IMG/VR virus record: IMGVR_UViG_3300020045_003852
Coordinates: 16,015 to 80,014 of that record
Length of the DNA: 64,000 nt
Direction: 5' to 3' (one strand)
Source of the DNA: a virus
This document shows, piece after piece, positions 33,019 to 51,730 of this stretch. The first letter of the stretch is position 1. Each line of letters starts with the position of its first letter. The notes beneath the pieces are model-generated. The model ran no database searches, was not told the origin of the DNA, and saw nothing but the letters and a program-made list of their open reading frames with translations. The translations under genes were made by a program, and so were the position numbers.

Positions 33019-33483
33019 TTAGTAATTACTAAAGTAATCGTAGCCATCTTTCTCTACGTCGGGGACACGGTAAAGGTTTAGGTCGGAATCGTCGTATGAC
33101 CCGGCAGGGTAGTTAATGATGCGTTTTTGTACAAGGGTAGAATCTTGTAGGTTGGCTTGTACGTCTGCTAAGTTCATTCCTCCGACATAGACGCCTGCTG
33201 AGGCATTTAGTGTTGCATTGTTTATTACCTCTTTCAAAAACTTTAGGTAGTTATTGTAAACTTCTGACCCATAAAATTCCAATTTGTCAAGGCGCTCCCT
33301 ACCAGAAAATGCCATTCGTGCAAGAATATACATTGCACTTTGCTTTGTTGCTGCAACAACATTTCCTGCGTTAGCATCCAAGGCAAATTGAATTTCTGTA
33401 TCAGAAAGCCACTCTATATCTGACGTATCCCCTATGTTTAAACGTACAACGTCCGCAGGGTCATTCAAGTCTAATGTAGCCAT
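33019..33483 (-). CDS. head-tail adaptor
   Basis: VRLNIGDT...LSDTEI. Confidence 0.75.
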   Translation of the reverse strand: MATLDLNDPADVVRLNIGDTSDIEWLSDTEIQFALDANAGNVVAATKQSAMYILARMAFSGRERLDKLEFYGSEVYNNYLKFLKEVINNATLNASAGVYVGGMNLADVQANLQDSTLVQKRIINYPAGSYDDSDLNLYRVPDVEKDGYDYFSNY

Positions 33484-35057: not shown

Positions 35058-35127
35058 AGTACCTCTGTAAAGGTGGTGGGCTAGATGGTGTTACAGCACC
35101 ATCAACGGAGCTACCGCTTTCACCCAA
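35058..35127 (-). promoter_or_regulatory. structured 5' leader RNA (kissing loop over the SD), copy A
   Basis: Same architecture, with compensatory changes, as 51528..51599. Confidence 0.7.
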
Positions 35128-35154
35128 AGTTTGAATTCTTTAATAAGATCACTC

Positions 35155-35183
35155 ATTATATCACAAACAAATGATCTTGTAAA
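35155..35183 (-). promoter_or_regulatory. sigma70-like promoter
   Basis: TTTACA-17-TATAAT. Confidence 0.7.
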
Positions 35184-35205
35184 GAAGGCTAGATTTCTCT
35201 AGCCT
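35183..35205 (-). terminator. terminator after the major capsid gene
   Basis: AGGCTAGA-GAAA-TCTAGCCT followed by TCTTT. Confidence 0.75.
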
Positions 35206-35216
35206 GTGCCACTAGA

Positions 35217-36227
35217 TTACGGCGTATAGCCACGGATAACCATGGCAGGTTTTACAACACTGTTCAAGAAGTTGGCTTCTGATTCAAGAATTACCTTATC
35301 ACCACGCTCACTTTGATATTCGAAAACATAAGTTCTCTCGCCTACGCTACCAAGCAAGTCAAATTTATTGGCCGGAGCGAAATAGGTTTTAAAGATTTCA
35401 GTGCCAACGGGGACAAAAACAGCATCCTTAGCGGGGATGAAAAGATTACCAGCGTAGTTGCCACGGACTTCAACAAAATGGATACCAGCATAATCAAATG
35501 TGCGGTACATAGTGCTGTTGCCACCAAGACGATTCCGAAGCGGCTCAGAGGTTGAGGCATAGTACGTATAAGCAGCCTTAACATTAGGATGCGAAATTAG
35601 GGCAGAGAAGAAGCCCGGCGAGCAATAGCCAATCACACTTTGAACATTCTCACCATTAGCGTTATCCTGGATTGATGCAATAACGGATTCAACCTTGGCA
35701 ACAACATCGGTGGTGCTAGTAGAAAAATCAAAATTGACGACGCTCTGTGTCACATTCAGTTCAGTAAAATAATTCATACTGACAGTTCCCGAAGGTGCGT
35801 ATACGTTTCCGGTTGTCAGGAGATTAAAACGAGCATACTCAAGAGTCCATGCGTGGTTCTGTGCAATACGGGCCAACTTACGGGCGCGCACAGCGGCGAG
35901 AGTTTCTTCTTGATCGGCACTACCGTAAGCTCGTTTTCCTTTTACATCAGAAGGACTAATATAATCGTCATAGGGGAAATGTGGGACAGCCCAGCTAAAC
36001 AACTTGCTAGTCGAGTCCTTACCAGCGCTGGCGCGTTCGCCACGAACCTTATCAACGATCAAAGCACCGTCACGAGTAGTCTGTTCGAATTGGACAGAAT
36101 ACTCAGAAACACCTTCGTCCATGAAAAGACCAGATTGGTTAAGCAGGCCCCACTGGTTCGGAATCATGAGGACTTCGCCCGTGTAGTCGGCTACTTCGAA
36201 GTTACTGCCAAATTTACGAATAATCAT
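35217..36227 (-). CDS. major capsid protein (lambda E-like)
   Basis: IPNQWG, VPHFPYDD.I, TLEYARF; synteny. Confidence 0.9.
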   Translation of the reverse strand: MIIRKFGSNFEVADYTGEVLMIPNQWGLLNQSGLFMDEGVSEYSVQFEQTTRDGALIVDKVRGERASAGKDSTSKLFSWAVPHFPYDDYISPSDVKGKRAYGSADQEETLAAVRARKLARIAQNHAWTLEYARFNLLTTGNVYAPSGTVSMNYFTELNVTQSVVNFDFSTSTTDVVAKVESVIASIQDNANGENVQSVIGYCSPGFFSALISHPNVKAAYTYYASTSEPLRNRLGGNSTMYRTFDYAGIHFVEVRGNYAGNLFIPAKDAVFVPVGTEIFKTYFAPANKFDLLGSVGERTYVFEYQSERGDKVILESEANFLNSVVKPAMVIRGYTP

Positions 36228-36257
36228 TTGTTATATTCCTTATCTTATTATTTTATA

Positions 36258-36677
36258 TTAAAGCGCAGTAACGGTAACAATACCCTTGAGTGCAAGAGCG
36301 TCGTAGACAGCTTGCTTCTCTGCATCAGTATCAGTTGCAGCAGCCATGACCAACTTACCAACAACGACCTTAGCAGGACCGCGTGCAAGCATCAATACCT
36401 TAGTATCTGTCGTAGTGGCACAAACAACGCTAGGGGTAAGTTCATCAGCGCCGATCAGAACACCAGCGGCTTCAAGGCCAGCACCTGAAGCGAGAGCAGC
36501 AGATTGAACTAGATACTTACCAGTCGCTGTGACCTTTGCAAGAACAGTGCCTTGAACAAGAGTAGCGCCTGCGGCGAGATTAACAGTAACAACCTCACGA
36601 GTGATACCACTTGAAGGCTCATATTCGTCTTGGAATACTTGCGAGAAGATTTCTGGACGAGTAGCAATAACAGTCAT
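36258..36677 (-). CDS. head decoration protein
   Basis: GTVLAKVTATGKY, ARGP, LALKGI. Confidence 0.8.
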   Translation of the reverse strand: MTVIATRPEIFSQVFQDEYEPSSGITREVVTVNLAAGATLVQGTVLAKVTATGKYLVQSAALASGAGLEAAGVLIGADELTPSVVCATTTDTKVLMLARGPAKVVVGKLVMAAATDTDAEKQAVYDALALKGIVTVTAL

Positions 36678-36691
36678 TTGTATTTCCTTTA

Positions 36692-37210
36692 TTATTTATT
36701 GTAAGTTTGTTTGATGATACGTGCAGTTTCAGATTCTTCTTCTGCCTTAACTTCGGCTTCGCCGCTTACTCCAACTTCGTTAAACAGAGCACTCTCAGCC
36801 TCAGCCTTAAACGAAGCCTTAAAGCCATTAAGCACAACCCCAAATGCTTCAGCATTAAGTTCTTGCAGAGCAGCAAATGTCGTATCGAAGCCAGGATTAT
36901 CTTGCCCAATGACATCTGCCAATTGAGCCTTCTTGTCAGCCAATTCCTTAGCCTTCAATTCTTCAGCAGCAGCAACAGCTTCAGCCTTTGCTTTATCTGC
37001 ATATTCTTGAAGGCTTGCCAATTGTTCCTTGTAGCCGTCAATTTCCTTTGCCATATTGGCAAGATTAGCATTGCTTGCAGTTAGTTCGCCAAGAGCAACA
37101 TTAAGTTGTTCAGCTAGATTAAGATTAGTCAAATCTTGACTCGCTTCAATAGGAGTAACAACCCCCTTGTTTTCTTGCATACCTACAGCCTTCTTCAACG
37201 CATCAAGCAT
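36692..37210 (-). CDS. capsid scaffolding protein
   Basis: Ala/Glu-rich coiled coil between protease and capsid genes. Confidence 0.7.
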   Translation of the reverse strand: MLDALKKAVGMQENKGVVTPIEASQDLTNLNLAEQLNVALGELTASNANLANMAKEIDGYKEQLASLQEYADKAKAEAVAAAEELKAKELADKKAQLADVIGQDNPGFDTTFAALQELNAEAFGVVLNGFKASFKAEAESALFNEVGVSGEAEVKAEEESETARIIKQTYNK

Positions 37211-37212
37211 TG

Positions 37213-38052
37213 TTACTCCTTCACTTTAGTTTTAATATAATTGGTGAATTCTTTGTGAGTCATTACTTTATTCACAAGACCGTTTTCCAATGCTTCATCA
37301 GCATTAAACAATTGAGCATCAAACGATGCAATCAATTCAGAATCAAGACCTGTGTATTTGCTCACATGAGAGATAAACTCAGTACCAAGTTTTGATACAT
37401 TGTTTTGCAGTCTTGAGATAAACCCTTCGGAGAATTCCCCTTCAGGCGTAAATGGAACCTTGCCGTTTGTAGATGTGATGAACTTCAGTTCACCCTTTTG
37501 GATGGCTTCCTTGTTACGATTTTCGAGAGCCAGAACACATCCAATACTTCCTGCGTCAGCAGAAGGATTAGCAATAACTTCATCCATAACACATGCTAAA
37601 GCAAATCCGGCCGAAGCCGCCATTTCGTCAATGTATGCTACCGATTCAACTTCTGCTTCGTCCAACATGTCTCGAATTGTATTAGCAGTCTCAAAACAAT
37701 GACTTGCCATTCCACCCGGAGTGTTGAAGTCATAGATAATCAACTTCGCACCAGAATCAATCATGTCTTGTGTTTGTGCAATCAATCCTAGATAGGATGC
37801 TCCGACTGCGCCACACATTGTCATTATCGGTTTGTATGACAGACTACCGGAGACAGGAATAACTCCAATCTCCCCAATTAGTTCTTGTTTGTTTCGCTCT
37901 TCATCTTCTTGCTCGTCTGGCTCATACACAGCGAAGTCTGCTTCTGTAACACGCTTAGTAAGATACTGAGCAATTACATTGTAGGCATCTGCTGTGATGA
38001 GTTGTGGTTCAGACAAAATAGAAGAGGCTAGGCGACTGATTTTATGTGCCAT
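37213..38052 (-). CDS. prohead protease (S49)
   Basis: NTPGG, AASAGFALA, AGSIG. Confidence 0.9.
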   Translation of the reverse strand: MAHKISRLASSILSEPQLITADAYNVIAQYLTKRVTEADFAVYEPDEQEDEERNKQELIGEIGVIPVSGSLSYKPIMTMCGAVGASYLGLIAQTQDMIDSGAKLIIYDFNTPGGMASHCFETANTIRDMLDEAEVESVAYIDEMAASAGFALACVMDEVIANPSADAGSIGCVLALENRNKEAIQKGELKFITSTNGKVPFTPEGEFSEGFISRLQNNVSKLGTEFISHVSKYTGLDSELIASFDAQLFNADEALENGLVNKVMTHKEFTNYIKTKVKE

Positions 38053-38734
38053 CGGCTTCCTTTAATTGTTGCTCTTTCCAAGAAAGAAAATTTACATCCT
38101 CTGTAGGATTCCAACCATTCTTAAACAAGTTTTTTATTGTCTTCTTATTCCAAATTGAACCACTTGGAAGGTATTTTGGAACACAGCCCCTTGTTTTAAA
38201 GGATGAGTACATGGTTTCAGCGCATAGCCATATCTCTGGATTGGAGGTGCTTCTTAACCACGGCTCCTTTGGCAGAGAGTCATTGTATTGCTTCATCCAT
38301 GTTGAAGATGATCGATATTGTAGTGGGCCAATGAAATCGTGCGTCTTTCCATTTCTCTTCCACCAATCAAAGCCAGAATTAGAAAGTTTGATTTTTGTCT
38401 CATCAGAGTGCGGTTTTCTGGTATAAATCCTACCTGTATTATGACAAGTATCACCACCCATCGCCATATTCCAACCCGTCTCTGCAAGAGGCCTCAACTT
38501 GCCCTCAAGCCAAAGCCCATACTCGTTTGAGCACTTACAGAGCGTATCTACAACAATGTTTTCCTCGCCATATTTTCTTATTGCATTGCAAATAACAATA
38601 TTGTCCTTGTTTGCTCTGCACTTATAAAGATGAAAAGCGTAACGTTCTTTCGTAGTCTTGCTCGTGAATCCAACATAACCCTGAGAAAACATGTCTGTAT
38701 GTTCTGGTAAATGAATCCAATAAACTTCAGCCAT
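38042..38734 (-). CDS. GIY-YIG homing endonuclease with NUMOD3 motif
   Basis: VYWI...GYVGFT...R, E, GWN; HSDETKIKLS. Confidence 0.82.
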   Translation of the reverse strand: MAEVYWIHLPEHTDMFSQGYVGFTSKTTKERYAFHLYKCRANKDNIVICNAIRKYGEENIVVDTLCKCSNEYGLWLEGKLRPLAETGWNMAMGGDTCHNTGRIYTRKPHSDETKIKLSNSGFDWWKRNGKTHDFIGPLQYRSSSTWMKQYNDSLPKEPWLRSTSNPEIWLCAETMYSSFKTRGCVPKYLPSGSIWNKKTIKNLFKNGWNPTEDVNFLSWKEQQLKEADGT

Positions 38735-38742
38735 GTTCCTCC

Positions 38743-40239
38743 TTATTTGTTTTCAGTATTACTCGTCGAGGCATTTCCTGAACTCCCGGTTGCATCGCCA
38801 GTTCCGCTTGGCATTCCGGATTGCATCCCTTCGGAAGCTCTAGATGTAGCATCCTTCATATACTCTTCATGAGGTTCATCAGACTCGGGGAAAGGATCAG
38901 CACCCATTGCTGTACGAACAATATTAAGTACGTCACGATTCGACTCAATCATACCTACAGCACCAACTCGTTGAACATACTTCCCAAGTTCATCAAGTGA
39001 AATGGCATCCAAAGGCTCATAAACAAATTCAGGCAACACAGAAGTGTCCCACTGATTCATTTCAAATGTCTGCTTGATTAAGTCATTATCAAGCACATTC
39101 TTAATTTCCCTTAGCCTATAATCCAGTGCATAAGTAACAATGTTTTCCTTGCTTCCTGCTAGAGCGAAAGAACCCGTAGAGTTATTACCAAGCTGTAGCA
39201 AATCAGCAAATAGACACACAAGAATATTACTAGTGTAACGCTGAATAATGTCAGAAGTGTTATAACTTTTACCACCATCGGATGTGAGGAGTTTAACGCT
39301 GAACAATTCTTTCTTACTTGTCTCATCACAATCTGAAGGAATGATAATGCCTGATTGCTCACCAACAGCAACATTGCGTACAGCCTTCTTATAATCTTCA
39401 TATACAGCCTTGTGAGCAGGACTTGCGTCGGGAGACATGTATGCAGCAGGAATGCCAATTGTGAGCAAACCTCCTAGATCACGACCAATACCCAACATTT
39501 CTTGCGTCTCAATTTCCTTCTTATATCGCCATGCAACCCATGCACTCTTCAGTGCAGGCGTACCCTCAATGTTTCCATTCTCAGGACTTGTGCGGAATAG
39601 AAGAAACTTCTCACGAGGAATATTAATTACTGATCCATCTTTAGCAAGATTGTTATACTGTCCACTCTGATTAAGAGCATTCAAGTCTTGTACAAAGTGT
39701 GTTAGATAACGTCCATCGTCTGTAAATTTCCACTTGTACCAAGAGGATTGTGCACGTACAGGAAGGGACTTCCAACCAACTAGGTTATCATTATACTTAG
39801 ATGTTTTCTTTGTGCGACGTTTATATACTTTCTCATTGACACACCAGCCATAGTCAATAACAGACATTAGGCTAGAGATGAAATCAAACCATGAATGTTC
39901 CATGTCATTCATGCATGTACGAATAAATGCTGTACGTTCAATGAGTGTATCATCGGCTCCGACAGGAGCCTTAACATTCCATTTAACTCGTCCAAGCATT
40001 GTCTTGTAGAAGGATAATGCTGCCGCTACGGCGGAGTCTTTCTTCATCTCGTTAATTTCTCTTACGAGATAAGGCATCCTGAGTTTACGATTTGATTCTT
40101 CAACAATGCTACCTAGCGCTACGCGCAATCCCGGATAACCTTGTTCCCCTAAAGCGATACGGGGAGAGGCAGGGGCTTCTGCGTCTTGCGTTAGCAGAGA
40201 CGTATTTAGCGTAGCATCTTGTTTAGTTGTCTTTGCCAA
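38743..40239 (-). CDS. portal protein (DUF935-like)
   Basis: YGWCVNEKVY, GNIEGTPAL, DIIQRY, GSFALA; synteny. Confidence 0.88.
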   Translation of the reverse strand: MAKTTKQDATLNTSLLTQDAEAPASPRIALGEQGYPGLRVALGSIVEESNRKLRMPYLVREINEMKKDSAVAAALSFYKTMLGRVKWNVKAPVGADDTLIERTAFIRTCMNDMEHSWFDFISSLMSVIDYGWCVNEKVYKRRTKKTSKYNDNLVGWKSLPVRAQSSWYKWKFTDDGRYLTHFVQDLNALNQSGQYNNLAKDGSVINIPREKFLLFRTSPENGNIEGTPALKSAWVAWRYKKEIETQEMLGIGRDLGGLLTIGIPAAYMSPDASPAHKAVYEDYKKAVRNVAVGEQSGIIIPSDCDETSKKELFSVKLLTSDGGKSYNTSDIIQRYTSNILVCLFADLLQLGNNSTGSFALAGSKENIVTYALDYRLREIKNVLDNDLIKQTFEMNQWDTSVLPEFVYEPLDAISLDELGKYVQRVGAVGMIESNRDVLNIVRTAMGADPFPESDEPHEEYMKDATSRASEGMQSGMPSGTGDATGSSGNASTSNTENK

Positions 40240-40290
40240 GAAGCCTCCTATTTATTATTAAGTGTTTGCATTTCAATTCTTATACATAAT

Positions 40291-40319
40291 ATTATACCAC
40301 ATAAAACAGTTATAGTCAA
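40291..40319 (-). promoter_or_regulatory. sigma70 promoter for the portal/head operon
   Basis: TTGACT-17-TATAAT. Confidence 0.8.
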
Positions 40320-40366
40320 TAGGTAAGTGAAAATATAATTGAATTCTACTGTAATATGTGGTATTG

Positions 40367-42000
40367 TTAGTTTAGGAAGGGGGATTCTTTTGTCATTGTG
40401 GGTAAAATAAACATCGGGAGTACAGATGTTTTAGCTAGTGTTGTAAATGCATCTGCTACGGCATCGACACAATCATCGTGACCTTTTCTCCCACCGTCAA
40501 AGGACTCTAGCTCCTGGAAAAAAAATTCATTCCAGTCACCTCTAACTACTTTAACATTACCTGCTTCGGACATACTAGAGAATGGAAGGAATCTTGAAAT
40601 CTTCCCCTTGTGTCCAGACACTTGCACAAGCCTTGCTGGAATACCGTTCTCAGACAATACGCGGATAACATGCTGTGACCATGAACGTCCTGCACCAATT
40701 TCACCAGGAATCATTACCTGCACTTCATCAACACCATCATCTCTTGCTGTCTTAACAATTTCGTCAAGAACATCACCAGATAACTTCCTGAAGCGATAAA
40801 CATCCTCGACGGTATAGATACCAAACTTCGAGCGTGAAACTTTCACCCCTGCCGTATAGTCCGGGTCTTTATTACTTTCACTCGGAAGTGTTGCTGCCAA
40901 GTCCCATGCCCTTACGCGCCGCACAGCGTCATCAGGAGGAAAGTCTACCATCTCAACCCATTCACGCTGCCAATACTTGCTTGCTGTTTCTCTAGCAAAC
41001 CAACTCCCCATCAACAAACGGTCACGTTCCGCACGTTTGAGATTCTCAAGACGGCGAACATATTCAGGGTCACGATTCATCAATATAGGGTTGCTGTAAA
41101 TATTAGCAGCAATGAACGTGTAAGTCATTGGTGTTGTATTTGGATACTTTTCAAGCATCTCTTCCGCAGAGTCAGCAAAGACCAAATCCCCACGATACTG
41201 TGAGAAATATCTTGTAGTCCCTGATTTTTCTGGAATAGGAATCCCTGTTTCCTGATCCAAATACCAATTTGTGAATTTCAAAAGGAAGGAGTCGGGGTGC
41301 GGATTGCATGTGGCGACTAATTTGTGTGGGCCTTTGGCCTTAGAACGAATACGAGAGAGCAAATACATAACCTGTTCTTGAGAATGCCATTGGCACTCAT
41401 CGAATACCACTAGGCTGTATTGTCCACCGTCAAAGTTAGTAATTTCTCTATCGGCACCAAGAGTTTTACACTGTACGAATGCACCATTTGGAAATGTGGC
41501 AGACATCCTATCTTGACGGAATGCTGGGCCAAATGGCTTATACATGGATTGCATCTCCATCCACAATCCTCCGGCCTGAGATAACTGCACGCTTGACTGC
41601 CTGATGTAGACAGCGCGAAACTCAGGGTCGTCTTTGAATGCCAAGGAGTACATTAGTGCTAGGTGGGATTTCCCACTACCTGCTATTTGTGTTCAAGATA
41701 GTTCGTTAACCTATCCCCGCAATAAAGCTGCTGCATGTCGCCATGCAGATCAGATCATATCTTCTATGTTTCCCGTTTCGAGCCACTTGGCTCTACGTCT
41801 TTCGACTGATCGTTACACGTTCCCGTTAGGGCTTCGTTCGGTATTGTCTGCTAGAGAGTTTCACCGAGTTAGAGAAATGTTTTTAACGTGGAGGCGCAGA
41901 GTTCACCACCACCGTAAATTACAAATTGTGCTTCGTGCGTCAGGAATTGCCTCTGTGTTTCAGAGGCAGGGCCATATACTGGCAATTTCTTTTTAGCCAT
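40367..42000 (-). CDS. terL: terminase large subunit, spliced (exon 1 42000-41905, exon 2 41683-40367; 470 aa)
   Basis: Joining the exons restores Walker A IYGGG|AGSGKS; Walker B VVFDE, ATCNP, nuclease AWDLA and HDDCVDA. Confidence 0.92.
41684..41904 (-). mobile_element. group I self-splicing intron (IA2-like, 221 nt, no ORF)
   Basis: P/Q/R/S-like motifs AACUCGGUGAAA, AAUACCGAACGAAGC, GUAACGAUCA, GAAGAUAUGAUCU; P7.1, P7.2, P9; P1 U-G wobble; in-frame stop if unspliced. Confidence 0.92.
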
Positions 42001-42730
42001 TGGAGCCTTTCCTTACCCCGTGCGTAGGAGCAAAAGTATAGCCTGTCGCTGAGGCGATCTTCAGGATGTTTTCTCTCCAAGCAATTCCATTAGCAAGCGC
42101 AACATCATACCCAAGTTTATCAATGTTAAAGTATTTGCTTACTTGCTTACCCTTTGATTTGTTTGCAACAGCAACGATATAGTTGTATGTTTTACCGTGC
42201 TTTGAGACTGTTGAATATTGTGTCACACCATTATGTCCTGTATTGTTAAGACAAGACAGACCCCGGTTCCTTGTTTGCTGATCTACAGTTTCCCACCTGA
42301 TGTTACCTGGAACGTAGCCTAGGGTGTTATCAATTCTTCCAACCGTATATTTTATATCATCAGGCGGCTTCTCTCCTACGTATGCAGCAAAGGCCAACAA
42401 GTCATGCCTCCACTCATCAGCAATTGTAACGCCAATAGCGCCATATCGTTTGTAGTCTTTACAGTTTGGATTAGTACAACGCTGAATTATCCCACTCCAA
42501 GAGTTATAGACTTCTGTGCCAAGAAGCCCATGTGTAGAGATGGCGTCCTTATGCAAACATCCACACGACCGAGTAGTACCATACCTTAAACTACTCCCTG
42601 CAATAACCTTCTCTTTACCACAATCACACTTGCACAACCAATGATAGTGGTTTTTAATTTTATCTGATCGGGCAATGACAAGAAGCCTACCAAAGCGTTG
42701 CCCAACAAGTTCTAGTTTGCTTCCCATCAA
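41993..42730 (-). CDS. HNH-like/AP2 homing endonuclease
   Basis: GQRFGRL, WLCKCDCG, SCGC, RC, RIDN..GY.PGN.RW; AP2-like tail. Confidence 0.85.
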   Translation of the reverse strand: MMGSKLELVGQRFGRLLVIARSDKIKNHYHWLCKCDCGKEKVIAGSSLRYGTTRSCGCLHKDAISTHGLLGTEVYNSWSGIIQRCTNPNCKDYKRYGAIGVTIADEWRHDLLAFAAYVGEKPPDDIKYTVGRIDNTLGYVPGNIRWETVDQQTRNRGLSCLNNTGHNGVTQYSTVSKHGKTYNYIVAVANKSKGKQVSKYFNIDKLGYDVALANGIAWRENILKIASATGYTFAPTHGVRKGSNG

Positions 42731-42743
42731 CCCTCCCTAATCA

Positions 42744-42962
42744 TTAATCAGCCCTAATAAGTAACGCCCTATTACAAGCATTTACCTGAGTAATGGGAAA
42801 TTTCGTAGCCTCTCCCATAGCCTTAATAATATCAGCAATTTCCTTATGACAATTGCTACGCAATTCCACTTCTTCTAGCACTCTTTCCACCTGCTGAAAT
42901 TCATCCACCTCAACATAGCAAAGTGTAAACTTACCTTTAATTGACACAATACGAATATTCAT
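42744..42962 (-). CDS. hypothetical protein
   Basis: AGGA SD. Confidence 0.6.
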   Translation of the reverse strand: MNIRIVSIKGKFTLCYVEVDEFQQVERVLEEVELRSNCHKEIADIIKAMGEATKFPITQVNACNRALLIRAD

Positions 42963-42980
42963 TATATGTTCCTACAAAAT

Positions 42981-43012
42981 AAAAGGACTCCTACCGTTAG
43001 GTAGAAGCCCTT
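42981..43012 (-). terminator. terminator downstream of the ncRNA/tRNA unit
   Basis: AAGGGCTTCTACC-TAAC-GGTAGGAGTCCTTTTATTTT on the - strand. Confidence 0.7.
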
Positions 43013-43108
43013 AGTGAAATGTCTCCTAACGGAGCTTCTTTGATTTATGAGTTTATATTATTACAAATTAACGTACTCACACTACGTTTAATGCTAAATA
43101 TCTAAACG

Positions 43109-43184
43109 TGGAGCATCCCATCGGCAACGATCCGATAACCTCTAGATTACAGGTCTAGTGCTCTGCCAATTGAGCTAGAGATGC
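43109..43184 (-). tRNA. tRNA-Thr(UGU), non-canonical
   Basis: 76-nt cloverleaf GCATCTC...GGGATGC-T-CCA; anticodon loop CC-TGT-AA; T-loop ATCGTTG. Confidence 0.85.
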
Positions 43185-43195
43185 GTAATTAATAT

Positions 43196-43768
43196 GTGGC
43201 AGGAGATGATCCCTGCTTACTGGACGGCATACCAGTCTCATACCCGCAGTGTACCTTTCGGCCGACCGAGTGTGTATCATCACTACACAGTGCACATAAC
43301 GGGTGGTGACTAATGTATCTGGTCGAATGCCTACACATATTCGGAGGCCGTAGAAGTCAACATTCGTTATGTTCCTACACCAAGGGTAATGTGTAAGAAT
43401 GCTTATTTTCAAACCCACTTAGTTATTCCGTCATGTACACGAGGGCGATAGCCAAGTAATAAGTCTTTACGAGAATGACTCGTCGATATTGGCGGAGGTG
43501 CCAATAAACCTCTTGCGAGGAAAGTGTTGATTACTCTTAACTTTTACTACTGACTCCTCCATTGTATTCCGCTTACAAAATGCGGAAACACCTTTTCGTA
43601 GTGTTTGCTCAAGATCACGCCGTATTCTTTATTTCATGACGCAACGGATTCGTCAAATTCTTCCATTAACGCAGGAAGTGATTACGACCAAAGGGAAGGA
43701 GTTGCCCTTCAATATTAGCTGACTGCCAATTCTCTTTGCTACATCATCTACAAAGTGTTCTTCATTTA
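43196..43768 (-). ncRNA. large structured non-coding RNA (~570 nt; ROOL/GOLLD-like context, family not assigned)
   Basis: Own consensus promoter; about a dozen hairpins with complementary loops; no credible ORF; followed by a tRNA. Confidence 0.72.
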
Positions 43769-43774
43769 GATTAC

Positions 43775-43803
43775 ATTATAGCATTACATTTCGCTATTGT
43801 CAA
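43775..43803 (-). promoter_or_regulatory. sigma70 consensus promoter for ncRNA + tRNA
   Basis: TTGACA-17-TATAAT with TG extension. Confidence 0.88.
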
Positions 43804-43822
43804 CATATTTCTACAATTATTT

Positions 43823-44245
43823 TCACATACTACGAATTGATGAAGAATCAAGGATAATCTCAGGGCAATATTTTGGCTGAGAATAGTCATCCCCTTCCTC
43901 TGTAACGTCTCTGATTTGCTTCTGTTGCGTTGCACGTTCTGCCAAAAGTAAACGAGATTGAGCAATTGCTCTACTTAAATTATCGCGGGAAATTTCAGAA
44001 CTAACAGAAATACGACGATCAATCAAGAATTTAGCAGCATCAATCTTTAACTTTTGATCTGCTTTATCATCCTTAATAATGTCTTCAAGTAGTTTAAATG
44101 CTGCGTCTAAACTCTTGTCGGCTCTGCGTAGAACTTTCTGAAGATCATTCTTTCTTGCGAATGAAATTTGAGCGTTGGCCGGGATAAGGGCTGGCTCGGT
44201 TGAGTCTGAATCATTATCAAGTTCTTCGTTATTATTTGCTGTCAT
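43823..44245 (-). CDS. hypothetical protein, possible terminase small subunit
   Basis: AAGGA SD before MTANNN; helical KLKIDAAKFLIDR motif; upstream of terL. Confidence 0.5.
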   Translation of the reverse strand: MTANNNEELDNDSDSTEPALIPANAQISFARKNDLQKVLRRADKSLDAAFKLLEDIIKDDKADQKLKIDAAKFLIDRRISVSSEISRDNLSRAIAQSRLLLAERATQQKQIRDVTEEGDDYSQPKYCPEIILDSSSIRSM

Positions 44246-44774
44246 TGTTATCCTTACCATCAATAGAAGGCGCTTGCGCAAGTAATTTACTCTTGTCACT
44301 CGACCCCCTTGTTGTCCCAAACCAGAATGCTAACGCGCTTGAGAATCCCCCACTCAATTGTCCAATCATATATACAACAATATCCCTGTTTGTTGCAGGA
44401 ACATCAAAATTGAGTAGTAGAACAAGTGTTGCTGTGAATGCTCCTACAACGAAACATGTTAGCAATGCTGGAATAATTGAATTAGTTGATGCTTGAAGTT
44501 TCCTAGCGTCTTGTGTATCTTGAGTGTATAACTGTTGTTCAGTAATGTCAAGTTCACGCATCTTAATTGCCAATGCATCTTCTGCTTGCTTAAGTTGTGT
44601 AATCTGTTCTGCTGTCAGAGAACCCTCAGAGAAGGCTTCCTTGACCTTATCTACAGTGGGTTGATCCATTCCCATCACCTTGCCGATTGACTCGACTGCG
44701 AGGCCGGCTAATGGCCCCCCAAGGGCTGTTGCTAACGTAGGAGCAACTACTCCTATAATTGATTTCCAATCCAT
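44232..44774 (-). CDS. holin-like membrane protein
   Basis: APTLATALGGPLAG, two C-terminal TMs, FWFG; next to the endolysin. Confidence 0.7.
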   Translation of the reverse strand: MDWKSIIGVVAPTLATALGGPLAGLAVESIGKVMGMDQPTVDKVKEAFSEGSLTAEQITQLKQAEDALAIKMRELDITEQQLYTQDTQDARKLQASTNSIIPALLTCFVVGAFTATLVLLLNFDVPATNRDIVVYMIGQLSGGFSSALAFWFGTTRGSSDKSKLLAQAPSIDGKDNNDSK

Positions 44775-44795
44775 TCGTGATTGCTCCTAAAATTA

Positions 44796-45323
44796 TTATG
44801 CAACGCCTAAGACACTCTTAGCTTTCTTATACAATGCTCTGCGTTCTTCTTGACCGTTAATTCCACCATTGACTACTCTCGTAATCTTATCAAATAATTG
44901 TTGGTCTGCCAATTCATTCAACTTATGTTCTTTCCACCACCAAGCAGCAGAACGTGTAGCATTTGGAATTGTCTCAAGAAGTTCAGGATTAGCAATGAAA
45001 TCAATTCCCAATGCTTTGCTTACAGCAGAATAATTACTTCTGCCTGTAATTTGAATTAATCCTCTTCCTTTAAACTTAATACCATCGCCATGTTGTGTAT
45101 TCCCTAAGTCTTTACGTCCTTCATATGCTGCTCCGCTTGCGATTTCACAAACGTAGCGTAGGCTTCCTGATTCATGTCCAATTTGGGCTAAGAAGGCTGC
45201 TTGTCTGAGTGGAGTATTAATTTCAAACTCTTCCATTGCCAAGTTTAATGCGGAAATGAAAGCATTGGCACGACTCTTTGAATATGGAAGAATTTGTTTT
45301 AGTTGTTCAAGTGTTATGTCCAT
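44796..45323 (-). CDS. endolysin, glycoside hydrolase family 19
   Basis: AAFLAQIGHES, FKGRGLIQITGRSNY, ITRVVNGG. Confidence 0.93.
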   Translation of the reverse strand: MDITLEQLKQILPYSKSRANAFISALNLAMEEFEINTPLRQAAFLAQIGHESGSLRYVCEIASGAAYEGRKDLGNTQHGDGIKFKGRGLIQITGRSNYSAVSKALGIDFIANPELLETIPNATRSAAWWWKEHKLNELADQQLFDKITRVVNGGINGQEERRALYKKAKSVLGVA

Positions 45324-45405
45324 TTTAATCTCCAGCAATAATAGAGGAGGCAGTGATAAACGGTAATACTACTTTTTTAATATCCATTGTTGCCTCCTGT
45401 TATTT

Positions 45406-47499
45406 TTAAAAAGATGGTGGTACTAGGTTTTCTGGCTTTCTGGCTGCTACAGAAACAACTCCGTCAAAAATAGTAACAGAACTGAAAACACAAGACATAT
45501 AACCCCCTGCACCTGTTCCTTGTCCATCACTGCCCATTTCAACAGTGTTACTAAGCATTGCAATTTGGGCTAATGTAGGAGTTGAACCTGTTGTTGAAAT
45601 TCCTTCAACACCGTTCACATTACAGAATGACCCATCTCCATTTGGTTGTTGTGGAGTACTAGATATACCAAAGAAAACAGTAGAAGGCTTTTCATACTCC
45701 ATTCCGGCAGGGAGCGTCGTAGTTCCTGTAACGGCCACGCCACCAAATTCAGTTCCTGCACCAAAGTAATAATCTTGCGCTATGTCGTCTGCCCTGTCAT
45801 CTGCACCACCGCCTATGCTCCCCGGTCTATGTGTTATACCAAACCTGTTTAGCCCATTATATTTGCAAGAAGATATGTAATAAAAATCCCTCTTAGACGT
45901 TGAACTTGGGTTAAAAAGTGGGTAGTATTTAAATCCAATTGTTAAATCATTTCTTGAAGATGGAAAAATGGTTGTTGGGATAGAAACAACATCCGCGTTT
46001 CTAATGATTACACTTCCTGCCGTATTTCCTATATAACTGGTTACATGATCATTCGCTTCTAACTGCGTTCCGCCAATAAGCAAAGTCAAACCGCTGTCTG
46101 TTGTGCTTCCATCTCCAGAAACAGCCGCAATGGAGAACAGCGGGGCAGTTGAACCACTAGCCCCACCTAGTGTTGAAAACCCGATTCTGTAGATATTGTT
46201 TATTCCTGTGGCCTTTATAACAACATCTGAAGATAGGACATTCTGCAAAGTTCCAACAGCGCCTGTTTCGATATTGAACCAAACCCTAGCAATGGTACTC
46301 CCATCTAAACGGGTTATGGATAAGTTGGCCCATTTTGCTGTTCCAATTTTTACGTAGGCACTAGCAGCAAGCATTAAATTGTTGGCTGCCGTAGGAACCG
46401 TTCCAGACCATGATTGTGAAATTTTATCTGTTACCGTATAAAACCTCCCATAGCCAATAGGATTATCTGTAGTTGTGCTTTGTAGTGGAGTCGTCGTTGA
46501 ATACGACCATGCAGCGTTATTTAATGTAGAATTGTATAGTAATCTTTGTGTTGCTGAATATTCTCTTAGTAGCCCACTCACCTCTGACTCAATTGGAGTT
46601 GGAGAGATTGTTTTTGTAGCAATCCCATTGAGGTCAACGCTCCAAGTATTTGTGAACGGTGAGTACATTACACCCTCCACACCAGCCCCAAGGTAGGGAG
46701 GGGCCGCACCAGATATGCCTCTTGCTAAGTAGTCCCCAGGGCTTCCGTCGGTTCCATCTGTGTTTTCAAGCTGTGAGCAAGCCGCATTAAAAGAAAATGC
46801 TCCGCTAGTAACATTACTTATCGTTATTCTATGATTTGTTCCGTCGACAATAACACCTTGAATAGAGAAACGTTTTCTAGCTCCAGAGGTTGCGTCCACA
46901 ATTTTTTCTGCCACAGTATAACTGTCGCTTGATCTTTCTATCCGCATCTTTAGGCTAGAACTAGACGCCCCCCATAGGTATATAGAAAATGTATGACGAC
47001 CTTGTTCATATGGGGATGAGTTTAGTGTAATAAGGTTTATGCTGGACGATCCTGAGTAGGACAACAGCCCACCTCCTGTTGAGTTAGGTGTGAGTGTAGT
47101 AGATGCCCCAAGTGTCCACCCTGTTGTAAAGCCCTCTGAATCAGCAATCAAGTTTGATGTTCGTCTCGCCCCAATAAATCTTGCTTCCCCTGCCCTAACG
47201 TACCTGACCATCCCAACATAGTCTGTGGTAGTTGCCACTGTTGCCCTTGCAAGAGAAACCATCGTTCCTTGTACAGCAGAGTAGGCCGGTGAAAGAGAAG
47301 TTTTTAATGGAGCGTTAAATGTTGCCTTAGGAGTTTCAGGTGTAATATTAACAACAGCACTGCCATCTGCGTCAACAGGAACAAACCCTGGAGGAAGACA
47401 TCCAACCTTTGTGTTAGACGCAGATGAAGTAGCTTTAATAACAAGCCTACCGCTTGTATCAACAGGCCAACCAACTTGTTCTAGAACGTGATCTATCAT
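45406..47499 (-). CDS. virion spike/fiber-like protein
   Basis: Ser/Thr/Gly-rich beta content; RATVAT, QLE...TSYI, RNAD; paralog of 47516..50065. Confidence 0.65.
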   Translation of the reverse strand: MIDHVLEQVGWPVDTSGRLVIKATSSASNTKVGCLPPGFVPVDADGSAVVNITPETPKATFNAPLKTSLSPAYSAVQGTMVSLARATVATTTDYVGMVRYVRAGEARFIGARRTSNLIADSEGFTTGWTLGASTTLTPNSTGGGLLSYSGSSSINLITLNSSPYEQGRHTFSIYLWGASSSSLKMRIERSSDSYTVAEKIVDATSGARKRFSIQGVIVDGTNHRITISNVTSGAFSFNAACSQLENTDGTDGSPGDYLARGISGAAPPYLGAGVEGVMYSPFTNTWSVDLNGIATKTISPTPIESEVSGLLREYSATQRLLYNSTLNNAAWSYSTTTPLQSTTTDNPIGYGRFYTVTDKISQSWSGTVPTAANNLMLAASAYVKIGTAKWANLSITRLDGSTIARVWFNIETGAVGTLQNVLSSDVVIKATGINNIYRIGFSTLGGASGSTAPLFSIAAVSGDGSTTDSGLTLLIGGTQLEANDHVTSYIGNTAGSVIIRNADVVSIPTTIFPSSRNDLTIGFKYYPLFNPSSTSKRDFYYISSCKYNGLNRFGITHRPGSIGGGADDRADDIAQDYYFGAGTEFGGVAVTGTTTLPAGMEYEKPSTVFFGISSTPQQPNGDGSFCNVNGVEGISTTGSTPTLAQIAMLSNTVEMGSDGQGTGAGGYMSCVFSSVTIFDGVVSVAARKPENLVPPSF

Positions 47500-47515
47500 A
47501 CATTACTCCTGAAAA

Positions 47516-50065
47516 TTAGGTTACTATACCGAATTGTGTTATCGTTTTAATTGTATTCTCACTTAGTGATTGCTTAAATGCGGCAATGTTCTTGTGAAAA
47601 GACATGTTCTGAGGCATTGCTTGAACAATGTCTACTGTTGCCTCTGGATATAGACCAGCAGTTCTTGCTGCGATCTTTCCAATAAACAGGGTTTCTGGCG
47701 GATAGTCCATTGTGTATTTCTTACTAGGAAACAACGGAATTGGGACGCTTTGCTTATGCATTTCTGTTCCATTTATGTATGCATAGTATTCTTCAGCTTT
47801 AACCATCCAAGCTGCCTTGTACTCGGCCATAAATCCCGCAGACGGCAGCAGTTCTGCACCAGAATAACACTCGTAGAATCCGCTAATGCCATTATCTATG
47901 TTACATTGCCAACGGACTGTTCCATCCGCAGTTAGATTACTTGTTGTATCTGGTGGTGTTGTGTATGTTGTAACAAAGGTTGGGGCTGAACTTCCGCTTG
48001 TTCCAGCAACAACACAAGTATACATGTTTTTACTTGTCGTGTTATTTGGCTTAGTATCAGGAGGGATACAATAGTCACCTAATTCATAAACGGTATTTGC
48101 TTTCCAAAAGTAAATTGGATTAGGGTCACCGTTATAAAAGTCATAGGCAAACTTAGCGTTTGCAGCACCACCAGACATAGGAGGACGAATAGTTATTCCT
48201 GTTCTGTTCATATCATGTGCCACATTATAAGGGGAGGCGGTATTTATCCCTGTTGTTTGTGAGTAGAATTGTTTATCTGTTTGCTCCACTTTGTAGTAGG
48301 GGGTAAAATCAGAGTAAGCTCCAAAATTAGTTCTACCCATCACACCGGACACAGGAATCTCAATTGACTGCCCAAGTGTGTTACCAACTGATGCTCCGGT
48401 AAACACTGGTGGAACTGCTATTGGCCTATGATTCAGGTTTGCTGTTCCAGACAAGTCTCTACGTGTTGTAAAATTAGGACACCACACGTAGTTATACTTG
48501 CTAACTCCGTCATAAGTTGGTAGATTATCCCCGTTGGCAAGACCAATAGAGACTTGCGGACTTAGTGTGCCAGCGCCCATTGGAACTGTCCAGAGAACAC
48601 GATACCATGAATTTCCCCAAGGCTCGACATTCAGCGTACCAATTTGCGTTACACCAATGACCCCTGTCTTTGCATTAAAATATGCAGAGTTTGTTGTTCC
48701 TGCAATGTTTGTAAACGAGAGACGCATCCATTCCCTGCCTGTAGAATCTCCAGAGTGTTTGACAAACACATTGAAATTATTCCATGTATCGTCGTAGGTT
48801 GCCATTGTAGCTGATAACGTAAACACAACCCGGTGTGCGGACGATGCGGTAGTGTCCTCTGCTAGTTTATAGGTAGAATATGTTCCGTCTGGTGCTTTAA
48901 TAGTAGCATCTAGTGCCAGTGTTGAAGCGGATACTGACCATCCTGTCCAAACATCATTGTTTGTTATTTGTTGTTGTGTTGTAGGGAAGGTAGCGATCCC
49001 TTTACATGTTGTTAGTAAGGCACCGGTTATTTCTGTAACAACGTGAGTGCCAATATTTCCTGTGTTTCCAAGTGCTGTATCAAAATATTTTACACCGTCA
49101 ACAGCGGCGCCGTGCCAAAACTTAGAGAGCGGCGGGTCGTTCTTTGAAATGTATTCAGATGGTACTGTTGCAACTGCATAATCTTCTTCAAACTGGAAGC
49201 GTCTGACGAGAACCGTACCTGCTGTTCCTAGTGAACGAATTCCGTAGACATAAGCTGCTGCTCCAGTCGGGGAGCAAGGCAGATAGTACCTAGCCCACTC
49301 TTGTCCGACTATTACAGTTGCTACCTCAAGGTCTGCCCCACCACTGACCCACACAGCCAATTGAACATTTGTAAGAGTTCCTGCGCGGAGTTCTACAGAC
49401 ATAACATGTGGCATGGCTCTATATGTAGAGCCGGAGGTTCTGCGGATTGTGCTAGAAGTAGATGATGTGAGACTTAGTTCCCATGTCGTCCCATCATCGG
49501 CCCCGATTGTGCTGTCGTTAACATATTGGATAGTTGCAGAACTATCCAACGTCCAAACAGCATTTGTTAATGTATTAGAGTGGCTAGTTAGATTTTCAAC
49601 CCTCCTAGCACCCCAAAATAGGGATTCACCAAGTGTGGATCGAACTGCCATGCCTAGATGATTCTTTACATGGCCCAGACCACCCCCACTGCTAGTGTCC
49701 CTTGTAAAATTTGGGTAGGGGCCAAGTTCAGGAATTAGACTACACTTGTGCTGACCAAAGTATCCCATAAAAGGTGCTGCCGGGAGCGAAATGCCATCAA
49801 CGACCCGGCCCGTAGTGGCATCGCTAAAATTTACTGTTACGCCGGAAACAGAAGCGGAAAGTGCCCCTTCTTCAAGAGTAGATGTAACAACACTCCCGCC
49901 TTCGGCGCTTTGCAAATTAACTACCATATTACCGTTCGCATCAACCGGAATATTATCACTTGGCAGCGCCCCAACAACACTCCTTCCACCCGTACCAACT
50001 ACAGCTACAATTTCTCCCTCAGAATTAACTGGAAATCCATACTGCTCTTTAATCAAATCAACCAT
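47516..50065 (-). CDS. virion spike/fiber-like protein
   Basis: Shared N-terminus with the 697-aa protein; GARRVENL; WKANTVYELGD module. Confidence 0.65.
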   Translation of the reverse strand: MVDLIKEQYGFPVNSEGEIVAVVGTGGRSVVGALPSDNIPVDANGNMVVNLQSAEGGSVVTSTLEEGALSASVSGVTVNFSDATTGRVVDGISLPAAPFMGYFGQHKCSLIPELGPYPNFTRDTSSGGGLGHVKNHLGMAVRSTLGESLFWGARRVENLTSHSNTLTNAVWTLDSSATIQYVNDSTIGADDGTTWELSLTSSTSSTIRRTSGSTYRAMPHVMSVELRAGTLTNVQLAVWVSGGADLEVATVIVGQEWARYYLPCSPTGAAAYVYGIRSLGTAGTVLVRRFQFEEDYAVATVPSEYISKNDPPLSKFWHGAAVDGVKYFDTALGNTGNIGTHVVTEITGALLTTCKGIATFPTTQQQITNNDVWTGWSVSASTLALDATIKAPDGTYSTYKLAEDTTASSAHRVVFTLSATMATYDDTWNNFNVFVKHSGDSTGREWMRLSFTNIAGTTNSAYFNAKTGVIGVTQIGTLNVEPWGNSWYRVLWTVPMGAGTLSPQVSIGLANGDNLPTYDGVSKYNYVWCPNFTTRRDLSGTANLNHRPIAVPPVFTGASVGNTLGQSIEIPVSGVMGRTNFGAYSDFTPYYKVEQTDKQFYSQTTGINTASPYNVAHDMNRTGITIRPPMSGGAANAKFAYDFYNGDPNPIYFWKANTVYELGDYCIPPDTKPNNTTSKNMYTCVVAGTSGSSAPTFVTTYTTPPDTTSNLTADGTVRWQCNIDNGISGFYECYSGAELLPSAGFMAEYKAAWMVKAEEYYAYINGTEMHKQSVPIPLFPSKKYTMDYPPETLFIGKIAARTAGLYPEATVDIVQAMPQNMSFHKNIAAFKQSLSENTIKTITQFGIVT

Positions 50066-50096
50066 AATGATTTATCCTTAATTGTAATTATTACTA

Positions 50097-50570
50097 TTAT
50101 TCGTTATCTTCTTTACCGACATTAGCCATTTCGTTAGCAATGCTGACAATTGTCTTAGACTTAATTTCTTGCAGCAACGCTTGCTTATATTCCATGTCAG
50201 CTTTATGTTGGCGTTCTTTACAGAACATATTGTATAGAAAAGATAACACAGCTATGGCCACTCCCGAGAAGATTGCTATATCGTTCATTGACCATACGCC
50301 TCCCCATATTGTTATAACTGAACCGGTATATGTGGTAACCGTTGTAACTTTATCATTCACATCTTGCCCCTTGTTATTTTTGTTAATAATATTGCCTATT
50401 GGCAATAATGAAATGAAGTCCCCATAATAGGCGTCTTCTAAAGATATACCAATATTAGCCGCCTTTGTATTACCTAGCAATGTTACAAGAGGGAACTCCT
50501 TAGAGCTTCCTCCAATGCAGCATAACGAATTAATTGGTATATCTTCTCCAGCAATGCCTAATGTGGGCAT
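50097..50570 (-). CDS. two-part protein; C-terminal half holin-like (possible internal GTG start at 50360)
   Basis: TYTGSVITIWGG..SMNDIAIFSGVAIAVLSFLYN TM pattern followed by a charged tail. Confidence 0.55.
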   Translation of the reverse strand: MPTLGIAGEDIPINSLCCIGGSSKEFPLVTLLGNTKAANIGISLEDAYYGDFISLLPIGNIINKNNKGQDVNDKVTTVTTYTGSVITIWGGVWSMNDIAIFSGVAIAVLSFLYNMFCKERQHKADMEYKQALLQEIKSKTIVSIANEMANVGKEDNE

Positions 50571-50590
50571 TATATTATTCTCTTTAAAGG

Positions 50591-50608
50591 AAGCCCCCGA
50601 AGGGGCTT
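50591..50608. terminator. intrinsic terminator
   Basis: AAGCCCC-CGAA-GGGGCTT (UUCG loop on the - strand). Confidence 0.7.
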
Positions 50609-50627
50609 GTTCCTACAATATTATTGC

Positions 50628-51527
50628 TTATGAATAAATTCTATCAATCTCTTCTTGAATCTTGTCTACAACCTCAATAACAGATGTCCCGACAAAACAT
50701 TCTGTGTAACCATCAAATTCTTTATTTGGATTTTTATAATTAGCCCGAAACCAATTAAGAACTTCTCTTTCTATGGTTTGACAATCTATCCCGGAGAGTG
50801 TTACTTCATAAACAACATTAAAGACCTCTCCAGACGACCTCGATACGAAGTATGATCGGTAATTTCCTGATTTATTCGAGATGCCAACCTTTATACAAGA
50901 ATCTGACTCTAGAACATAAACAACACCGTCTTTATATGGAGAGAACCCGGACTTTGCACAGGATGGGCAACCACAGGGCATTAAGTGCACACTCGGTTTC
51001 TGAAAGAAGCTCCCGTGTATTTTGCACACTATCTCGACTGGAGTTGTTGCATCAACATAGTTAACCTTAGAATAATCGTACCTATCCCCATGCTTTCTAA
51101 CTGCGTCAATTACGAAAATTCCGGTGTTCTTTGGTGCTCCGCTGTTACAATAAGGGCAACCTTGTTTTCTATGAATGTGGTGGGCTGCATCTTGATAGAA
51201 TGTGCCGTGTATGGAACAAGTCATTGGTATCTTAGAATAAATATCCATGTATTCAGACATGTCATACTTGTACCTGTCTTTATGTATGCTATAGAATATA
51301 TCAAGCACTTCTTCTTTTGTCTTTAGCGCCACTCCAGCACACCTTGGGCATCCACTTCTCCTTGATGTATGATTTCTTGGTAATACTGTGAACTCGCCAT
51401 GTTCTTTACAAATCACAACAACTTTATTGTCACTGCGGGTATAATTTGTTTTTGAATAGTCATATCTGGTTCCGTGTACAGCAACAGCTTCAGAGATATA
51501 TTGCTCTGTTGTTATTTTCTTACTCAC
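50628..51527 (-). CDS. homing endonuclease-like protein with 3 zinc-ribbon (DUF723-like) repeats and a GIY-YIG-like C-terminus
   Basis: GTG start with GAGGAG SD gives MSKKITTEQYI, matching the paralog; VYVL...IKVGIS..R; GYTECF. Confidence 0.8.
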   Translation of the reverse strand: MSKKITTEQYISEAVAVHGTRYDYSKTNYTRSDNKVVVICKEHGEFTVLPRNHTSRRSGCPRCAGVALKTKEEVLDIFYSIHKDRYKYDMSEYMDIYSKIPMTCSIHGTFYQDAAHHIHRKQGCPYCNSGAPKNTGIFVIDAVRKHGDRYDYSKVNYVDATTPVEIVCKIHGSFFQKPSVHLMPCGCPSCAKSGFSPYKDGVVYVLESDSCIKVGISNKSGNYRSYFVSRSSGEVFNVVYEVTLSGIDCQTIEREVLNWFRANYKNPNKEFDGYTECFVGTSVIEVVDKIQEEIDRIYS

Positions 51528-51599
51528 ATTACTCCTCTGCAAAGGGAAACGGCTAGACTGCGTTGCAGCGCAGTCAGGAGGATCAGTCTTTTCGCCGTA
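51528..51599 (-). promoter_or_regulatory. structured 5' leader RNA (kissing loop over the SD), copy B
   Basis: Covaries with 35058..35127. Confidence 0.7.
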
Positions 51600-51701
51600 T
51601 TAGATTTGTCATTCCTCATCAGCCGCTACGCGGCGAGTAGAACAACATTTAGATATTAAGAATTAAGTTTGTTATTCTGCATCTTAAATTCTTACATTAC
51701 T

Positions 51702-51730
51702 ATTATATCACATATTTCTCTCTAAAGCAA
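51702..51730 (-). promoter_or_regulatory. sigma70-like promoter
   Basis: TTGCTT-17-TATAAT. Confidence 0.7.

Follow-up and report, generated by a model that had tools for sequence, protein, structure and literature searches.

A covarying kissing-loop leader RNA over the ribosome-binding site of diverse viral endonuclease genes as a candidate brake on their translation

The window analysed here, a stretch of 64,000 nucleotides (nt) from the uncultured virus record IMGVR_UViG_3300020045_003852, carries two nuclease genes, A and B, on its minus strand. Each of them is preceded by a copy of a structured leader RNA, which covers the ribosome-binding site (RBS) together with its Shine-Dalgarno (SD) sequence and is the subject of this report. 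The source record is 80 kb long and, according to the covariance model, copies A and B are the only leader copies in it. Copy A is preceded by the major capsid gene, a hairpin and a promoter. An earlier sequence-only reading of the window had described the two downstream genes as zinc-ribbon paralogs, and both indeed contain repeated treble-clef zinc-finger modules (Pfam DUF4379 and DUF723). When compared with PHROGs, they match families 681 ('endonuclease') and 559 ('HNH endonuclease') with E-values down to 4e-84. No profile in Pfam or NCBIfam names the catalytic domain of A or B, the best match being a sub-threshold GIY-YIG (E = 0.052). The features of the two loci are listed in Table 1.

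Table 1. Positions of the nuclease genes, leader elements and upstream signals in the window
Feature	Position	Strand	Remarks
Nuclease gene A	33471-35057	-	528 amino acids; repeated treble-clef zinc-finger modules and C-terminal domain
Start AUG of gene A	35055-35057	-	
Leader copy A, A-type	35058-35126	-	87.3 bits, covariance model
Copy A SD hairpin	35061-35074	-	
Copy A target UUACAG	35065-35070	-	loop of hairpin ACCU/AGGU
Copy A SD GAGG	last target G and 3' stem strand	-	
Copy A P1	35122-35126 with 35077-35081	-	
Copy A J2/1 UA	35082-35083	-	
Copy A P2	35097-35103 with 35084-35090	-	
Copy A P2 loop CUGUAA	35091-35096	-	
Copy A P1a hairpin	35105-35117	-	GCGG-UAGCU-CCGU
Promoter of cassette A	35155-35183	-	TTTACA-17-TATAAT, TG upstream; 11/12 matches
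Hairpin 3' of major capsid gene	35181-35205	-	AGGCUAGA-GAAA-UCUAGCCU, then UCUUU
Nuclease gene B	50628-51527	-	299 amino acids, GTG start; paralog of A
Start GUG of gene B	51525-51527	-	
Leader copy B, B-type junction ACUGAUCCUCCU	51530-51598	-	87.8 bits, covariance model
Copy B SD hairpin	51534-51545	-	
Copy B target UUGCAG	51537-51542	-	loop of hairpin CCU/AGG, then SD AGGAG
Copy B P1	51594-51598 with 51549-51553	-	
Copy B J2/1 UA	51554-51555	-	
Copy B P2	51569-51575 with 51556-51562	-	
Copy B P2 loop CUGCAA	51563-51568	-	
Extended -10 of cassette B, TGTGATATAAT	51702-51710	-	about 100 nt upstream of P1; read by eye
Weak -35 of cassette B, TTGCTT	51725-51730	-	3/6 matches

On re-reading the minus strand, the letters of both copies were exactly those written down in the sequence-only reading. 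As RNA, copy A is UGGGU GAAAG CGGUAGCUCCGUU GAUGGUG[CUGUAA]CACCAUC UA GCCCA CC ACCU[UUACAG]AGGU ACU AUG and copy B is ACGGC GAAAAG ACUGAUCCUCCU GACUGCG[CUGCAA]CGCAGUC UA GCCGU UU(C) CCU[UUGCAG]AGG AGUAAU GUG, where the square brackets enclose the loop of stem P2 and its target hexamer. The end of the copy is separated from the start codon by 3 nt in A and by 2 nt in B. The two copies can be aligned without gaps over 69 columns, and the compensatory changes that had been noticed between them hold: 2 of the 5 pairs of the outer stem (P1), 3 of the 7 pairs of the inner stem (P2) and 1 of the 6 loop-target pairs are exchanged, and none is broken. The unpaired 18-nt stretch is identical at only 7 positions.

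The set of relatives was assembled by successive covariance models, sequence patterns and protein homology, and comprises at least 147 instances, at least 97 of them distinct, on uncultured viral contigs. With the covariance model based on A and B, a third version, C, came to light among capsid relatives, in 3 of their 30 records (39.8 bits). Version C is located at the same site after the capsid gene; its P2 stem and its loop/target combination, CCACUA/UAGUGG, are both new, and its 12-nt junction is that of copy B. A pattern on this B-type junction returned seven viral stretches, all of which (7/7) are true copies, including versions D, E and F. With a second model, confined to the 5' domain, version G was found in one relative; its junction is that of copy A, and each of the 29 stretches returned by a pattern on this A-type junction also matches the model (29/29). 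Retrieval by protein homology, using the HNH-like nuclease of about 180 amino acids, was combined with a third model, which matches 45 of the 62 new loci at 56-65 bits. The other 17 loci comprise 4 that are truncated at a contig end and 13 distant relatives, and a model-free scan of these 17 gave one AT-rich match only. In the last pattern, GAA, the P1a hairpin and UAG were the only fixed elements, P1, P2, the loop and the target being left free; it returned at least 120 viral stretches. The sequence-only reading had staked its proposal on a covariance model of the two copies finding further copies linked to nuclease genes, and such copies were found.

Some searches led to rejected candidates or to very little. 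The first DNA pattern, composed of the loop, UAGCC and the target of A and B, hit 11 stretches, none of which is a real copy. Among 20 matches of a pattern in genome contigs, the model keeps 2 weak ones, and the one that was read (L154) lies in GC-rich coding DNA and was taken as chance. The metagenome pattern scan gave one match, seemingly a viral record already in the set. Megablast of the A region against cultured phages gave no match, the covariance models not having been run on these phages, and blastn of version C, a sequence search rather than a covariance model, gave only two partial matches, to Xanthomonas phages (E = 0.6).

The core of the leader is a three-way junction of P1, P1a and P2. 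In an alignment of 25 distinct rows, all 7 pairs of P2 change on both sides and 99.4% of its cells are paired. Two pairs of P1a are intact in 25 of 25 rows, with GC, AU, GU and CG variants, and P1 is effectively a helix of 4 base pairs (bp), its outermost pair being open in 9 rows. The observed covariation score was reached by none of 500 shuffles, and slid controls for the core helices are paired at 29-54%. RNAalifold, applied to 17 full-length sequences, independently predicted P1, P1a and P2. There are at least 22 variants of P1 in the set, and 20 of P2 among its first 29 distinct instances. P1a is nearly invariant, far more conserved than P1 or P2: GGGUAGCUCCC occurs in 46 of the 52 anchored rows and in all of the distinct cores retrieved via protein homology (21/21). 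Note that both retrieval patterns fixed the sequence of P1a, so its conservation is partly an ascertainment effect. At core positions 15-18 lies a self-complementary tetramer, which is AGCU in A-type and GAUC in B-type leaders; these are the two states in the data set. The GAA after P1 and the UA before the 3' strand of P1 are kept across the set. An all-against-all column scan with a loose filter found no covarying contacts beyond the known helices.

The target hexamer is located 4-14 nt downstream of the outer stem. When it was searched for within 15 nt of P1, the P2 loop and its target were fully complementary (6/6) in 93 of the 97 distinct instances among the matches listed, with at least 34 distinct loop/target pairs. 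The models contain nothing on the sequence downstream of P1, which makes the loop-target pairing an independent check. When loops were taken from other instances, 455 of 8786 comparisons (5.2%) gave 6/6. For the P1a-based pattern, full pairing is found in 54 of 55 distinct new instances among the matches listed. As to the exceptions, the instance in L240 has a 7-nt loop and reaches 6/6 when offset, and that in L333 was rejected as a chance pattern match (P1 2/4, P2 3/7). The remaining two, in L187 (3145-3194) and L189 (2086-2135), are 5' domains of about 41 bits with no target and no open reading frame (ORF), apparently relics after loss of the nuclease gene.

None of the 52 anchored rows breaks any of the six loop-target pairs, five of which occur as 3-4 different pair types. 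The target is flanked by an inverted repeat, so that it forms the loop of a hairpin of 3-8 bp. The first three pairs of this small SD hairpin are intact in 52, 52 and 51 of the 52 rows, with up to four pair types, and its stem cells are paired in 198 of 208 cases, compared with 101 and 102 of 208 when slid. In 50 of 56 instances a distance of 6-9 nt separates the 3' end of the target from the start codon, and the purine-rich SD (GGAG, GGGGA or GAGG) extends across the end of the target and the 3' strand of the SD hairpin. With covarying loop-target pairs and a stem for each of the two loops, the kissing-loop fold over the RBS proposed from two copies is borne out by the wider set. The predicted structure is a two-hairpin intramolecular kissing complex over the RBS, with both stems and the contact covarying. 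Pairing of CUCC in P1a with the SD was also considered and rejected; it is feasible in most copies, yet any SD would fit, and copy A offers only 3 bp.

The leader is linked exclusively to nuclease genes. The downstream proteins of all 20 representatives match nuclease families, 4 of the matches being weak, and the kinds behind the leader include zinc-ribbon repeat, AP2/HNH, HNH-like of about 180 amino acids, endonuclease VII, GIY-YIG, HNH-repeat and others. For example, versions D (L133:2064-2148) and F (L138:3806-3885) have nearly identical leaders and upstream DNA, followed by a zinc-ribbon nuclease in one and an AP2/HNH nuclease in the other, and the identity stops right after the SD. Versions A and C, in turn, share the same site and similar nuclease C-termini, with opposite junction subtypes. 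These comparisons indicate that leader and nuclease ORF reassort independently as modules. A group I intron match (L162:2756-2975, 86.7 bits, E = 1e-20) was also found about 50 nt past the stop of the 376-amino-acid nuclease of version D, L162 being the same record as L133, where tRNA genes lie upstream. The version D leader-nuclease unit may be attached to this intron.

A near-consensus sigma70-type promoter is present in 38 of 57 distinct upstream contexts, and in 25 of these 38 a gap of 5-7 nt separates the end of the -10 box from the motif. Consequently, P1 would start at about +1 of the mRNA in those contexts. The idea of a promoter-RNA-nuclease cassette is thus supported in part: the promoter is there in these 38 contexts, but other copies stand behind tRNA genes or a terminator without a visible promoter, and leader and ORF reassort. 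The leaders of L185, L189 and L199 start 5-40 nt past the 3' end of a tRNA gene with no visible promoter, and would therefore be co-transcribed with the tRNA clusters. In the window, the earlier claim that each copy has its own sigma70 promoter holds for copy A, whose promoter has 11 of 12 matches and the upstream TG, whereas copy B has an extended -10 only; the promoter scan did not call cassette B, owing to its 3/6 -35. The predicted transcript start of copy A is about 20 nt before P1. The hairpin 3' of the major capsid gene overlaps the -35 box of cassette A and is likely a terminator, judging from its sequence, although the terminator scan did not call it, its T run being too short.

We regard the leader as rather likely to be a constitutive cis brake on the translation of free-standing homing-endonuclease mRNAs. 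About 50 nt of the leader would fold into the three-way junction, with a P1 of 4-5 bp, the short P1a hairpin and the 7-bp P2, and the small hairpin of 3-8 bp downstream would offer a 6-nt loop exactly complementary to that of P2. Once the two loops kiss, the SD, which consists of the final target bases and the 3' strand of the SD hairpin, would be wholly base-paired. Because the kissing contact and the small stem would bury the SD, 30S subunits would seldom bind, and little nuclease would be made. Both the lowered translation and its constitutive nature are what we infer from this arrangement.

Several observations weigh against a simple constitutive brake. A plain lock needs only P2 and the target, which leaves the conserved junction and the near-invariant P1a unexplained. 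A near-consensus promoter (TTGACA, 16-18 nt, TATAAC) immediately precedes many copies, which is surprising if the gene is to be kept silent. None of the 80 loci of the closest homologs of nuclease B carries the leader according to the three covariance models, and a model-free scan of nuclease B homologs for hairpin loops that could pair with the SD region gave 6 of 67, under the shuffled rate of 14%. In L103 (5020-5095), where the capsid is 67% identical, a nuclease gene of 461 amino acids occupies the same site with no leader. Among the sequencing runs listed, no RNA run carries the stretch, and 12 runs contain only small shares of it (0.05-0.06). Finally, the minimum free energies of the window copies are weak relative to shuffles (z = -2.0 for A and -0.7 for B); the folding energy of A and B alone is unconvincing, and therefore the case for an RNA element rests on the relatives. 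As a separate observation on L103, its promoter -10 box sits in an inverted repeat, CTGGAG...CTCCAG.

As a tentative alternative, the leader may be a conditional switch that senses concentration or a factor. A partner at the junction or P1a, which could be a second leader copy, a protein of phage or host, or a small ligand, would open or tighten the lock, and the synthesis of nuclease would thereby be timed or dosed. In the case of a second leader, the self-complementary tetramer would pair two leaders tip to tip in a loop-loop dimer; otherwise P1a would dock the factor, and the hold on the RBS would be altered. The conservation of P1a, so much stronger than that of P1 and P2, speaks for such a partner, but it is partly the ascertainment effect mentioned above. 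Similarly, the two junction subtypes carry different yet self-complementary tetramers at the same core positions, but only two tetramer states are available and a loop-loop contact of 4 bp is weak. Strong promoters directly upstream agree with expression of the gene under some condition; however, the all-against-all column scan revealed no covarying, mutually exclusive alternative pairing, and the junction differs between A-type and B-type, which is unusual in a ligand pocket. If the switch were true, many unrelated families of selfish nucleases would share one portable device for dosing and timing.

It is unlikely that the leader is primarily a stabiliser or processing element of the mRNA 5' end, with P1 shielding the end from 5'-end-dependent decay or marking processing after tRNA genes and the SD pairing being secondary. 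The position of P1 at about +1 in 25 of the 38 promoter contexts and the several copies directly after tRNA genes (L185, L189 and L199) would suit such an element, but in the window copies about 20 and about 100 nt of 5' tail precede P1, and the match of nearly every loop to its own SD region is left unexplained.

The sequence-only reading had also suggested autoregulation by the nuclease, or a leader that is an RNA partner of the nuclease. The leader always adjoins a nuclease gene, and I-TevI autoregulates its expression, though at the DNA level (PMC2988022). However, the same leader precedes unrelated nuclease families, and therefore autoregulation or a guide role is unlikely; versions D and F combine one leader with different nucleases, the 80 homolog loci of nuclease B lack it, and what varies in the RNA corresponds to its own SD rather than to an external target. 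Consequently, we consider binding of the leader by its own nuclease, or a partner or guide function, very improbable. Scarcely credible is a DNA-level repeat without RNA function, whether recombination handle or chance inverted repeat: the identity of D and F that ends after the SD suggests that the leader may provide a homology patch through which ORFs are exchanged, but three helices and the loop-target contact carry compensatory changes on one strand only, in each case ahead of a start codon, as expected from selection acting on an RNA fold.

The constitutive brake may be compared with known structures. Kissing complexes are exemplified by TAR-TAR*, the HIV-1 dimerisation site and ColE1 RNA I/RNA II. 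As in these complexes, two loops of the leader would pair via about six Watson-Crick pairs with all loop bases engaged; unlike in them, the contact would form within one mRNA and over the RBS, intermolecular pairing being a hypothesis for the P1a loop only. In the translational OFF riboswitches SAM-II and preQ1-II, the SD is buried in a pseudoknot. The leader resembles them in having a structured 5' domain whose predicted tertiary pairing takes in the SD, and differs from them in that no ligand is indicated and the downstream genes are nucleases, not metabolic genes. A riboswitch family would be expected to have invariant ligand-pocket nucleotides and downstream genes of a single pathway; in the leader, GAA and UA are kept, and the junction and P1a exist in two versions.

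The closest precedents are found in T-even phages, where RBS-sequestering structures limit the translation of I-TevI, I-TevII, I-TevIII, segB and Aeh1 mobE, as described in PMC2988022. In both cases a cis RNA structure pairs the SD of a selfish nuclease gene, and the SD of the leader likewise lies in a local structure upstream of a homing-endonuclease ORF. However, the T-even hairpins are simple, local and gene-specific, whereas the leader has a conserved three-way junction and a kissing contact common to unrelated nucleases. Furthermore, the T-even hairpins are relieved by a late promoter inside the structure, whereas the sigma70-type promoters found for the leader lie upstream of the whole fold; no internal late or middle promoter was found, the late promoters of these phages not being known. 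An RBS-hiding leader of a homing-endonuclease gene is of a known kind; the shared three-way junction and the covarying kissing loop are new.

The int-alpA RNA motif is, like the leader, a small orphan structured RNA from metagenome-based motif discovery. When the two were compared by covariance model rather than by structure, none of 6 records, the genome of the window and five other carriers of the leader, matched Rfam RF02996 (int-alpA) even at E <= 10, its gathering score being 35.8 bits. A scan of the window with Rfam 15 at gathering thresholds found only a tRNA, permissive scans of both copies gave chance-level matches only, and at E <= 1 no match was found at the leader positions of 20 leader loci. 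No account of the leader was found in the literature, the supplementary motif lists of PMC5737381 (224 motifs) being outside the search; the words 'endonuclease', 'homing' and 'int-alpA' are all missing from the main text of that paper.

The expression of homing endonucleases has to be high enough for them to spread, yet low enough to spare the phage. Translational control of these enzymes was previously known only as gene-specific hairpins in T-even phages. The leader, found on at least 120 viral contigs with one pattern alone, is a portable RNA fold common to unrelated nuclease families and a candidate for a new family of cis-regulatory RNAs with unusually clean covariation, not in Rfam 15. 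It would also provide, in a natural mRNA, an SD covered by an intramolecular kissing complex, and could mark free-standing nuclease genes that profile searches leave unnamed.

Some minor observations on the window may be added. Loop A (CUGUAA) and target B (UUGCAG) could form 6 of 6 pairs including one G-U, while the reverse combination has a C-A mismatch; as judged from these letters, there may be one-way cross-talk between leaders A and B. A mini-hairpin of 5 bp and 3 nt (GCCGC-GUA-GCGGC, 51622-51634) lies inside the 5' tail of the leader B transcript. Hammerhead-like words near copy B (CUGAUGAG and CGAAA) were rejected, as there is no stem II, they are missing in copy A and there is no Rfam ribozyme match. 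The capsid of the window shares about 50% identity with capsids of Limnohabitans, Pseudomonas and Curvibacter phages. The tRNA gene that is the sole Rfam match in the window is at 43112-43184 on the minus strand (53.4 bits). The 3' end of gene A (33471-33483) overlaps the ATG and SD (AAAGGAG) of the next gene (33019-33483), and therefore deletion of the nuclease gene would take out the ribosome site of its neighbour.

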